Shown here in pieces: positions 18,817 through 28,729 of a stretch of 64,000 nt of DNA. The stretch spans positions 4,296 through 68,295 of the forward strand of contig NZ_JAPZSC010000058.1 of assembly GCF_027531545.1 (NCBI RefSeq). Reading direction: 5' to 3'. Position numbers and translations under genes: made by a program. Each line of letters starts with the position of its first letter. Positions within the stretch are counted from its first letter, which is position 1. This DNA comes from Silanimonas sp. Lineage in GTDB: Bacteria > Pseudomonadota > Gammaproteobacteria > Xanthomonadales > Xanthomonadaceae. The notes beneath the pieces were generated by a model. That model did not search any database and was not told the DNA's origin. It saw nothing but the letters and a program-made list of their open reading frames with translations.

Positions 18817-18840
18817 GACTCGTCGGGAAACGCAAGAAAA

Positions 18841-18921
18841 TGTGATATGCGCCACAGAAGTGTGGGGCGCCTCACGTTTTTTCACATCCGTTGACGAAGC
18901 TGGTGTGTGACGCAGTTCGCA
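18841..18921 (+). promoter_or_regulatory. Three CRP/Clp-like boxes upstream of the secreted protein gene
   Basis: TGTGA-TATGCG-CCACA (18841-18856), TGTGG-GGCGCC-TCACG (18861-18876), TGTGA-CGCAGT-TCGCA (18906-18921) versus consensus TGTGA-N6-TCACA. Confidence 0.6.
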
Positions 18922-18959
18922 CTGCTAGAGTCCAAGGCCTGCTGACTGCCTAGACGTGC

Positions 18960-25976: not shown

Positions 25977-26040
25977 GAAGGCCGCCCGGAGGCGGCCTTC
26001 GGTGGATCAAGGAACGCCCGCGCGAACGCGGCGTTCCTTG
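25977..26040. terminator. Tandem hairpins between the convergent lipoprotein gene and acnA
   Basis: GAAGGCCGCC-CGGA-GGCGGCCTTC (25977-26000) and CAAGGAACGCCCGCG-CGAA-CGCGGCGTTCCTTG (26008-26040, one bulge). Confidence 0.65.
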
Positions 26041-26047
26041 GCTTCGA

Positions 26048-28729
26048 TCAGGCGGCCTTGGCGCCCGCGGCCAGCTGGCGCAGCACGTAGTGCAGCAGGC
26101 CGCCGTGGCGGAAGTACTCGACTTCCTTCGGCGTCAGCAGCAGCACCTGGGCCTTGAAGCTCACGACCGAGCCGTCCGGGCGCTTGGCGCTGATGTCCGC
26201 GACCTTGCCGGCGCCGTCCTGCAGGCCGGTGATCGAGACCACCTCGTCGCCCTTCAGGCCGAGCGTCTGGGCATTCTGGCCGTCGAGGAACTGCAGCGGC
26301 AGCACGCCCATGCCGACCAGGTTGGAGCGGTGGATGCGCTCGAAGCTCTCGGCGATGACCGCCTTGATGCCCAGCAGGTTGGTGCCCTTGGCCGCCCAGT
26401 CACGCGACGAACCGGTGCCGTATTCCTTGCCCGCGAACACGACCGTGCCCACGCCCTCGGCCTTGTACTTCATGGCCGCGTCGTAGATGGCCAGCTTGTC
26501 ACCCGACGGGTAGTGGATCGTGTTGCCGCCCTCTTCGCCGCCCAGCATCAGGTTCTTGATGCGGATGTTGGCGAAGGTGCCGCGCACCATCACGTCGTCG
26601 TTGCCGCGGCGCGAGCCGTAGCTGTTGAAGTCGACCGGCGCCACGCCGCGCGACTGCAAGAACTTGCCCGCAGGCGAGCTGGCCTTGATGTTGCCGGCCG
26701 GCGAGATGTGGTCGGTGGTGATCGAGTCGCCGAAGATGCCCATGACGCGCGCGCCGTGGATGTCGCTGATCGAGCCGACCTGCATCGTCATGCCGTCGAA
26801 GTAGGGCGGGTTCTTGATGTAAGTGCTGTCGTCCCACTGGTAGGCGTCGCCGTCCGGCGATTCCACCGCGTTCCAGCGGCTGTCGCCGCGGAAGACGTCG
26901 GCGTAGTTCTTTGCGAACATCTCCGGGCCGATGGTGGCGGCGATGGTGTCGCCGATTTCCTTGTTCGACGGCCAGATGTCCTTGAGGTAGACCGGCTGCC
27001 CGTCCTTGCCCGTGCCCAGCGGCTGGGTCGAGAGGTCGAGATCCGTCGTGCCGGCGATGGCGTAGGCAACAACCAGCGGCGGCGAGGCGAGGTAGTTCAT
27101 CTTCACTTCGGCGTGCACGCGGCCTTCGAAGTTGCGATTGCCCGAGAGCACCGAGGTCACGACGAGGTCACCCTCGGCGATGGCCTTCGAGACGGCTTCC
27201 GGCAGCGGGCCGGAGTTGCCGATGCAGGTGGTGCAGCCGTAGCCGACGACGTGGAAGCCGAGCGCTTCCAGGTCATCCATCACGCCGCCCTTCTTGAGGT
27301 AGTCGGTGACCACCAGCGAGCCCGGGCCGAGCGAGGTCTTCACCCACGGCGCGACCTTCAGGCCCTTGGCGACGGCATTGCGGGCCAGCAGGCCGGCGCC
27401 GAGCATCACCGCCGGGTTCGAGGTGTTGGTGCAGGAGGTGATCGCGGCGATGACCACCGCGCCGTCCTTCAGCTTGGTGCCCTGGAAGTCGGCTTCGCCC
27501 GAGGCCTTCGCCGGGGTCTTGGCGGCGCGCGCCTCAGCCATCGGCTTCAGCGACTCGCGGTAGACCTTCTGCATGTCGGAGAGCAGCACGCGGTCCTGCG
27601 GGCGCTTCGGGCCGGCGAGCGAGGGCAGCACGCTGCCCATGTCGAGGCCGAGCGTCGAGCTGTACTCGGCTTCCACCGACGGGTCGCGCCACAGGCCCTG
27701 GGCCTTGGCATAGGCCTCGACCAGCGCGATCTGCTCGGCCGAGCGGCCCGAGAGGCGCAGGTAGTTCAGCGATTCGCCGTCGATCGGGAAGATGCCGCAG
27801 GTGGCGCCGTATTCCGGGGCCATGTTGGCGATGGTGGCGCGGTCGGCCAGCGGCAGCTGGTCGAGGCCGTCGCCGTAGAACTCGACGAACTTGCCGACCA
27901 CGCCGTGCTTGCGGAGCATCTGGGTGACGGTGAGCACGAGGTCGGTGGCGGTGGCGCCTTCCGGCAGCTTGCCGGTGAGCTTGAAGCCCACGACCTGCGG
28001 AATCAGCATCGACGAGGACTGGCCCAGCATCGCGGCTTCGGCCTCGATACCGCCCACGCCCCAGCCCAGCACGCCGATGCCATTGATCATCGTGGTGTGC
28101 GAGTCGGTGCCGTAGACGGTGTCCGGGAACGCGTGCTCGACGCCGTCGATGGTGCGGGTCATGACCACGCGCGCCAGGTTCTCGAGGTTCACCTGGTGGA
28201 CGATGCCGGTGTTCGGCGGCACGACCTTGAAGTTGTCGAACGCCTTCTGGCCCCAGCGCAGGAAGCTGTAGCGCTCCTTGTTGCGGGTGAATTCGAACAC
28301 GCCGTTCTCGTCGGCGGCCGAGGGTTTGCCGAACACGTCGACCTGCACCGAGTGGTCGATGACCAGTTCCGACGGGATCAGCGGGTTGATGCGCTTCGGA
28401 TCACCGCCCAGCTTCTTGACGGCATCGCGCATGGCGGCGAGGTCGACCACGCAAGGCACGCCGGTGAAGTCCTGCAGCACCACGCGGGCGGGCATGAAGG
28501 CGATCTCGGTGTCCGGCTCTTTCTTCGGCTCCCACTTCGCCACGGCTTCGATGTGTGCCGGGTTCACGGTGACGCCGTCCTCGCAGCGCAGCAGGTTCTC
28601 GAGGAGGATCTTCATCGAGTAGGGCAGGCGCTTGATGTCGAAGCGCTGGCCCAGCTTCGGCAGGCTGTAGAAGGCGTAGGACTTGCCGTTGACGGCAAGC
28701 GTGTCGCGGGTGGCGAAGGAGTCGCTCAT
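26048..28729 (-). CDS. acnA: Aconitate hydratase A (Xanthomonas rpfA equivalent)
   Basis: [48 protein letters not shown]. Confidence 0.98.

Follow-up and report, generated by a model that had tools for sequence, protein, structure and literature searches.

I analysed a stretch of 64,000 nucleotides (hereafter the window; positions 4296-68295 of contig C51, NZ_JAPZSC010000058.1) from the assembly GCF_027531545.1 (genome G000; 3.82 Mb, 73 contigs) of a Silanimonas species. The subject is the interval between lysS and fadD, the site at which most genera of the family carry the rpf genes of the diffusible signal factor (DSF) quorum-sensing system, and which is occupied here by a different set of genes related to cyclic di-GMP (c-di-GMP). 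Genes were called from Pfam scans and translations of the window. The left border of this slot is lysS (17284-18816, + strand; start MSEQPN; Pfam tRNA-synt_2 and tRNA_anti-codon). The right border is fadD (23663-25351, - strand; Pfam AMP-binding), the rpfB orthologue, which encodes a long-chain fatty acyl-CoA ligase. The real start of FadD is MSIERPW, a longer open reading frame (ORF) of 669 amino acid residues being an over-extension, and the protein scores 1045.8 on the NCBIfam equivalog PRK08751, the cut-off of which is 1023. Between the two borders, a gene on the + strand (18960-21158) for a secreted-type protein of 732 residues with a Big_9 Ig-like domain (Pfam Big_9 E 2e-8, a weak PPC match, and a hydrophobic signal-like N-terminus) faces two genes on the - strand. 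One encodes a GGDEF/EAL protein of 413 residues (21208-22449; Pfam EAL 1e-67, GGDEF 4.5e-10), and the other encodes a DUF3391-HD-GYP protein of 409 residues (22424-23653; Pfam DUF3391 and HD_5).

On the left side of lysS, in the same orientation, lie greA (12900-13376, + strand; Pfam GreA_GreB_N and GreA_GreB), which is syntenic in the family loci and forms the left flank of the rpf neighbourhood, an ORF of 306 residues (13381-14301, + strand), recJ (14298-16016, + strand; Pfam DHH, DHHA1, and RecJ_OB), and prfB (16078-17203, + strand; Pfam PCRF and RF-1). The prfB gene has a programmed +1 frameshift at CTTTGAC (position 16147), and both frames were read. On the right side of fadD lies acnA (26048-28729, - strand; Pfam Aconitase and Aconitase_C; NCBIfam AcnA), the equivalent of rpfA. 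RpfB and RpfA are therefore found in the window together with the lysS-prfB-recJ-greA flank, as in an rpf cluster. The gene order given by the first-pass annotation was correct, including its description of fadD as directly followed by an HD-GYP gene and then by a GGDEF/EAL gene that converges on a secreted-protein gene. It had also described the slot as lacking rpfF, rpfC, and rpfG and carrying another c-di-GMP module, and this holds: within 18817-28729, Pfam detected neither an ECH/crotonase domain nor a HisKA/HATPase hybrid kinase nor a REC domain. The same gene order was found in five independent Silanimonas assemblies (L001-L004 and L006). Thus, the arrangement is not an assembly artefact.

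How is this slot occupied in other members of the family Xanthomonadaceae? About 20 kb around fadD was cut out from one genome per genus, and the resulting 59 family loci were mapped with the window proteins and with canonical RpfF, RpfC, and RpfG sequences from the locus L094. The best FadD matches have 62-89% identity in all 81 family genomes, and the match is the positional orthologue wherever its flanks were read. In 39 of the 59 loci, lysS is followed by rpfG and rpfC, which converge with an rpfF-fadD-acnA array read from acnA towards lysS. The same canonical order, prfB-lysS-rpfG-rpfC-rpfF-rpfB, has been described for Lysobacter enzymogenes (PMC7205486, Fig. 1B), and the lysS-fadD interval is indeed the rpf slot, as the first-pass annotation had assumed. 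In 13 loci (L088, L090, L092, L096, L101, L110, L120, L130, L131, L134, L135, L137, and L139), lysS directly adjoins fadD with gaps of 7-1536 bp and no rpf gene. Six loci have lysS and fadD unlinked or lie on contigs too short to judge. The HD-GYP/EAL cassette occupies the slot in the single remaining locus, that of S. lenta, the other Silanimonas locus sampled; in this one-genome-per-genus survey, such a filling was found in Silanimonas only. The survey was extended to 20 loci from ten other families of the order. An rpf cluster is in the slot once (L166), two families have lysS and fadD adjacent with an empty slot (L149, L159, and L160), and in the remaining families the two genes are unlinked.

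The cassette itself has a much wider distribution. The HD-GYP gene followed by the GGDEF/EAL gene, adjacent and on the same strand, was found in at least 35 loci (35 of 44; most of the exceptions lie on truncated contigs) from Silanimonas, Thermomonas, Pseudoxanthomonas, Cognatilysobacter, Lysobacter, Thiohalobacter, Thiogranum, Sedimenticola, and Nitrosomonas, with flanking genes that differ by lineage. The HD-GYP/EAL pair is an autonomous gene module. Within the family, the HD-GYP orthologue is present in 29 of 81 genomes and 23 of 58 genera. The public records that contain the HD-GYP protein at 80-98% identity are without exception Silanimonas genomes, among them S. lenta DSM 16282 and metagenome-assembled genomes from two lakes, Mendota and Erie; the five assemblies with the arrangement fall in this identity range. 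Among the cassette-bearing one-per-genus loci whose slot was read, rpf fills the slot in 12 and nothing does in 5. The cassette lies beside fadD in Silanimonas only, and never in about 30 non-Silanimonas loci. Since it lies away from fadD and lysS in all other carriers, its location in the slot is a derived trait that only Silanimonas shows. In the sister genus (G035), the cassette is on a different contig with 56% identity. The corresponding site in Silanimonas was considered as an empty donor site; both flanking genes are kept there, but they enclose an mgtE-like gene, and other genera use other contexts, so that no single ancestral site can be named. As a separate observation, the cassette is tandemly duplicated in an uncultured gammaproteobacterium, MFD05684 (L027, 10001-17700).

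At the junction with fadD, the TGA stop codon of fadD lies 9 nt before the ATG start codon of the HD-GYP gene. The GGDEF/EAL gene has a TTG start codon with a GGGAG Shine-Dalgarno sequence 9 nt upstream, and overlaps the 3′ end of the HD-GYP gene by 26 nt. No terminator-like site was found between the fadD, HD-GYP, and GGDEF/EAL genes. Because of the 9-nt gap, the 26-nt overlap, and the lack of such a site, the cassette is very probably co-transcribed with rpfB in Silanimonas. The first-pass annotation went further and proposed that the replacement links fatty-acid activation to c-di-GMP turnover. This proposal is not supported by the distribution of the pair, which is found in at least 35 loci with lineage-specific flanks and beside fadD in one genus. 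Since the adjacency is absent everywhere else, I regard the fatty-acid link as positional; it is specific to the genus and probably incidental.

The sequences of the two cassette proteins were examined for their motifs. In the HD-GYP protein, DUF3391 (PF11871, E 9e-15) covers residues 7-133 and HD_5 (PF13487, E 5e-26) covers residues 158-313, which is the DUF3391-HD-GYP architecture. The protein was aligned to PmGH (4mcw, with the motif HDIGK) and across 28 orthologues. The histidine of the HD dyad is replaced by Leu or Met in all 28 orthologues, and the dyad reads M-D in the window protein. The lysine of the GK motif is often lost, and the third-metal ligand of the E185 type is absent. The RxxK motif reads RVYQ in the window protein, the Lys position being variable (Q/A/R/S/V/I) across the orthologues. 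On the other hand, the HHE motif, the DGSGYP motif, and the distal Asp are invariant, and HHHERHDGSGYP and IVDSFDA are conserved. Because the HD histidine and the RxxK lysine are replaced throughout the orthologues, the DUF3391-HD-GYP protein is probably not an enzyme. As for the rest of the genome, three more of its seven HD-GYP proteins have degenerate dyads: RD at C64:48866-50035 (- strand), YD at C18:48560-49774 (+ strand), and VD at C20:80908-82137 (- strand). The other three of the seven look catalytically canonical.

In the GGDEF/EAL protein, the GGDEF motif reads GHGDF and is degenerate in every orthologue, and the domain is probably dead as a diguanylate cyclase. The EAL, N, ExxE, DDFG, KID, EGVE, and QGY motifs are all present and are conserved in 24 orthologues, the full set being kept in the 11 Lysobacterales orthologues, and the protein is a probable active c-di-GMP phosphodiesterase. 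It has no N-terminal sensor, only about 20 residues preceding the GGDEF domain. Pfam found no acyl- or CoA-binding domain in either cassette protein. The EAL protein would be the catalytic part that lowers c-di-GMP, and the pseudo-HD-GYP protein may be an input or regulatory subunit, controlled through DUF3391 and acting on its EAL partner by protein contact, plausibly between the GYP surface and the degenerate GGDEF domain. This model is based on precedents: degenerate HD-GYP proteins can work through contact with other proteins, notably HnoD, which inhibits the EAL enzyme HnoB (bioRxiv 10.1101/2021.11.05.467447), and RpfG binds GGDEF proteins. In the cassette, two features speak for an action on the EAL partner: the genes stay paired in 35 of 44 loci, and their reading frames overlap. 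My literature search found no paper describing a pair of a pseudo-HD-GYP protein and a GGDEF/EAL protein.

The third gene in the slot has a history of its own. In Silanimonas sp. LE19-98.1A (L006, 12428-12460), the Big_9 gene is absent and about 30 bp separate the end of the GGDEF/EAL gene from lysS. Since this gene is missing from one Silanimonas species, it is a separate, later insertion into the slot and is variable within the genus. Three CRP/Clp-type boxes (TGTGA-N6-TCACA with 1-2 mismatches) lie upstream of the Big_9 gene at 18841-18921. Only four matches with up to two mismatches exist in the whole window, and three of them are within these 81 bp. Three other Silanimonas assemblies (L001-L003) retain the promoter-proximal box, and a Clp orthologue is encoded in the same genome at C55:317498-318223 (PDB 3iwz, E 4e-101). 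No Clp box with up to three mismatches was found upstream of fadD. Between the convergent stop codons of the Big_9 and GGDEF/EAL genes, a GC-rich hairpin (21172-21195; GGGCGCGCC-GAG-GCGCGCCC) is a candidate bidirectional terminator. It has no T-run and was not picked up by a scan for T-run terminators.

Two further ORFs belong to this neighbourhood. The ORF between greA and recJ, which the first-pass annotation called rpfE-like, has no Pfam match. An orthologue occupies the corresponding position in every rpf locus and in nearly all loci of the family; identity is 71-94% among Silanimonas genomes and 33-50% to other genera. About 700 bp separate fadD from acnA, a stretch that the first-pass annotation treated as intergenic; an ORF for a small lipoprotein-like protein (25341-25928, + strand; lipobox LTGC), divergent from fadD, had been overlooked there. 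This ORF is conserved in position, since in about 47 of the 59 family loci tblastn finds a counterpart between the two genes with 27-50% identity, and its Pfam matches are to DUF4440/SnoaL and weak only. An Rfam scan of 12000-31000 gave no match at E<=0.1.

Does Silanimonas have a DSF system elsewhere in the genome? A Pfam search of the assembly for ECH_1 gave eight matches, one of which is RpfF-like (C47:201-1172; PDB 3m6m, E 4e-47). The protein is 36% identical to a slot-encoded RpfF, and its nearest named relatives, with 79-83% identity, are from Burkholderiales and Rubrivivax. The contig C47 is 12,071 bp in length. The RpfF-like gene follows a Haem_oxygenas_2 gene in an operon, next to which lie additional copies of mutL and of an aconitase gene; the C47 MutL shares 51-57% identity with the MutL of five Silanimonas genomes, each of which has only one. 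Other samples contain identical copies of the RpfF-like gene, on contigs that reach 55 kb and have the same non-Silanimonas surroundings. The tetranucleotide similarity of C47 to the main contigs is 0.966, against a 5th percentile of 0.96, which is mildly low and not decisive. C47 was probably mis-binned or, less likely, recently transferred. A resident DSF system based on the C47 gene was considered and set aside, in view of the Burkholderiales relatives, the second mutL and aconitase genes, and the other Silanimonas genomes without the gene. The same contig also carries, at C47:8930-11938, a Dcm-type methylase gene and a HATPase-like gene with 58-61% GC.

Among the 12 other genomes labelled as this genus, 11 lack RpfF (E<=1e-20) and only G012 has it. 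This genome (locus L084) has a canonical rpf slot and a FadD of 62% identity on a long branch, and it groups with L106 and not with Silanimonas, at odds with its genus label. In the window's own genome, a tblastn search with the L094 RpfC gave generic kinase and REC cores from residue 163 on, with 24-42% identity, residues 1-160 being unmatched. RpfG gave separate REC or HD-GYP matches only, at no more than 37-42% identity, and no REC-HD-GYP orthologue. The sole REC-like HD-GYP protein (C64:48866-50035) has RD instead of HD and matches residues 204-368 of RpfG only. My literature search found no paper on Silanimonas with rpfF. The wording DSF-synthase-free in the first-pass annotation is therefore right for the slot and for 11 of the 12 other genomes of the genus; for the assembly as a whole it fails to the letter, since the probably foreign contig C47 holds an RpfF-family gene.

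Is the rpf-less slot of Silanimonas ancestral or derived? A tree of concatenated FadD, LysS, and PrfB sequences (1368 columns) was built with FastTree, and a 38-taxon subset was analysed in IQ-TREE with the LG+G4 model. Silanimonas is the sister of L107/G035, which has rpf in the slot, with a support of 99 in both FastTree and IQ-TREE. The two together lie inside a clade dominated by rpf-bearing genera with a support of 97-99 (SH-aLRT). Several neighbours of Silanimonas in the tree have empty slots, which indicates that rpf loss recurs in this part of the tree. In a tree of RpfF, RpfC, and RpfG, L107 does pair with L129 of the same clade. Congruence between this tree and the species tree was tried as proof of vertical descent and dropped, because it is only partial. 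The partial congruence rather suggests that rpf alleles have been exchanged between genera at a fixed chromosomal site (loci L084-L141). As a further observation, the earliest-branching rows of the FadD+LysS+PrfB tree have an empty slot, so that this condition may be the more ancient one in the order.

It is reasonably probable, in my judgement, that the rpf genes were lost in the Silanimonas lineage and that the slot was refilled by the Big_9 gene and by an autonomous cassette of a pseudo-HD-GYP regulator and an EAL phosphodiesterase. I infer that rpfG-rpfC-rpfF would have been lost from the lysS-fadD interval before it gained two unrelated insertions, namely the Big_9 gene behind its CRP/Clp-box promoter and the two-gene c-di-GMP cassette, which many Gammaproteobacteria carry at other sites of the chromosome. 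Of the two origins offered by the first-pass annotation, an independent replacement fits the data. The other, an ancestral pre-DSF state in which the slot never held rpfF, rpfC, and rpfG in Silanimonas and predates the DSF insertion elsewhere, is very unlikely. It gains something from the early-branching L131, L088, and L110 and from the families f3 and f8, where lysS adjoins fadD without rpf, so that an rpf-less slot may be older. However, the sister genus of Silanimonas bears rpf and both are nested among such genera; the rpf-less lineages have an empty slot without the cassette; the cassette is located elsewhere in 28 other family genomes; and rpf is already present in the slot of L166, an earlier-branching lineage from another family. 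The early-branching lineages and the two other families may preserve a true pre-DSF state, but Silanimonas does not.

Several results weigh against the loss and refilling of the slot as I describe it. A tree that puts Silanimonas beyond the rpf-rich core clade is not rejected by an approximately unbiased (AU) test (p 0.13, delta lnL 52), a result that also speaks for the ancestral state. The FadD+LysS+PrfB trees are built on three linked genes only, and the partial congruence of the RpfF+RpfC+RpfG tree with them points to movement of rpf genes between genera, which weakens a simple parsimony of losses. No relics of rpf or of the cassette, no insertion sequence, integrase, or mobility genes, and no flanking repeats were found that would show how the event took place. 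The catalytic inactivity of the HD-GYP protein is deduced from its sequence alone, and according to a review of HD-GYP proteins the missing histidine in the Xanthomonas RpfG may not abolish activity (bioRxiv 10.1101/2021.11.05.467447). Finally, one HD-GYP module has been followed by another at the same site in a genome with about seven HD-GYP genes; the probability of this by chance is low, and it leaves room for selection on the position.

This last point leads to the possibility that the cassette was recruited behind rpfB by selection, joining the expression of c-di-GMP degradation to that of fatty-acid or DSF turnover and replacing RpfC/RpfG signalling by a fatty-acid-linked control without a synthase, for example in a response to the DSF of neighbours. 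The 9-nt gap without a terminator and the same-strand order fadD, HD-GYP, EAL, shared by the five Silanimonas assemblies that cover the locus, are consistent with it. So is the HD-GYP-based previous occupant, since a random insert would rarely be of this kind (7 HD_5 matches in 3.8 Mb), and so is the retention of Clp, which is c-di-GMP-responsive and acts downstream of Rpf, together with the Clp-type boxes preceding the secreted-protein gene. I consider this coupling unlikely, as the pairing with fadD occurs in none of about 30 non-Silanimonas cassette loci, neither cassette protein has a domain for binding acyl groups or CoA, fadD has no upstream Clp box, and the cassette works with its own promoter elsewhere. 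A different question is whether the cassette might consist of two active phosphodiesterases, the HD-GYP protein still hydrolysing c-di-GMP (or cGAMP or pGpG) despite the change from HD to MD. The strict conservation of the HHE, DGSGYP, and distal Asp metal ligands in all orthologues suggests a maintained metal site, and a Lysobacter RpfG without a key His is reported to be robustly active (bioRxiv 10.1101/2021.11.05.467447). Yet the Leu or Met in place of the HD histidine in every orthologue is not a typical Fe or Mn ligand, the lysine of RxxK, which contacts c-di-GMP, is lost, and HnoD and ECA3548, HD-GYPs with altered HD motifs, are inactive (same review), which makes a second active enzyme quite unlikely. 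The boldest proposal would combine these elements: the pair may be an undescribed, widespread two-protein c-di-GMP switch, in which a dead HD-GYP protein sensing through DUF3391 gates the EAL protein via a GYP-GGDEF contact, and which in Silanimonas was captured into the rpfB operon as a functional successor of RpfC/RpfG, coupling c-di-GMP degradation and, through Clp, the Big_9 protein to fatty-acid/DSF turnover without producing a signal. I regard this whole combination as a long shot.

If it were true, Silanimonas would be a DSF listener or quencher among DSF producers. The loss of rpf and the refilling of the slot make this textbook quorum-sensing locus a clean natural example of gene turnover: rpf occupies the slot in about two thirds of the Xanthomonadaceae genera sampled, is plainly missing from about one fifth, and is replaced by a different c-di-GMP module in one. 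The freshwater genus Silanimonas, a frequent find in metagenomes of cyanobacterial blooms, retains RpfB and Clp, and the present results suggest that it does not make or sense DSF in the canonical way. The pair of a pseudo-HD-GYP protein and an EAL protein, which extends from Lysobacterales to sulfur oxidisers and Nitrosomonas, would be a simple, testable model for degenerate HD-GYP domains and may be a more promising object than the slot.

The Xanthomonas/Lysobacter rpf cluster (rpfA-rpfB-rpfF and rpfC-(rpfH)-rpfG) shares with the window the same flanks and the same orientation, with fadD reading toward lysS, and a slot with an HD-GYP protein and c-di-GMP turnover genes. It differs in that RpfF, RpfC, and the REC-HD-GYP protein RpfG are absent from the Silanimonas slot and from Silanimonas-type contigs. 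The window HD-GYP protein has a DUF3391 input and a degenerate HD dyad and is encoded behind fadD, whereas rpfG of the rpf cluster follows lysS. By its two-domain architecture in Pfam and its GYP motif and HHE/Asp ligands, the window HD-GYP protein resembles the Bd1817 family of DUF3391-HD-GYP proteins, which includes the active members PA4108 and VC2497 (bioRxiv 10.1101/2021.11.05.467447). PA4108 and VC2497 have a canonical HD dyad, whereas the cassette proteins have L/M-D, no RxxK lysine, and no ligand of the E185 type, and are always paired with a GGDEF/EAL gene.

The logic proposed for the cassette has its closest parallel in HnoD/HnoB of Shewanella oneidensis, in which a degenerate HD-GYP protein is encoded with, and acts on, an EAL phosphodiesterase. 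HnoB (REC-EAL) and HnoD (REC-HD-GYP) are response regulators fed by an H-NOX kinase. In contrast, the cassette has no REC domain, a DUF3391 input, and a degenerate GGDEF domain on the EAL protein. In this last feature, it resembles the composite phosphodiesterases in which a degenerate GGDEF domain lies upstream of an EAL domain with the residues of an active enzyme. Unlike these composite enzymes, the cassette EAL protein has no sensor, and its input would come in trans, presumably from the HD-GYP protein encoded upstream.

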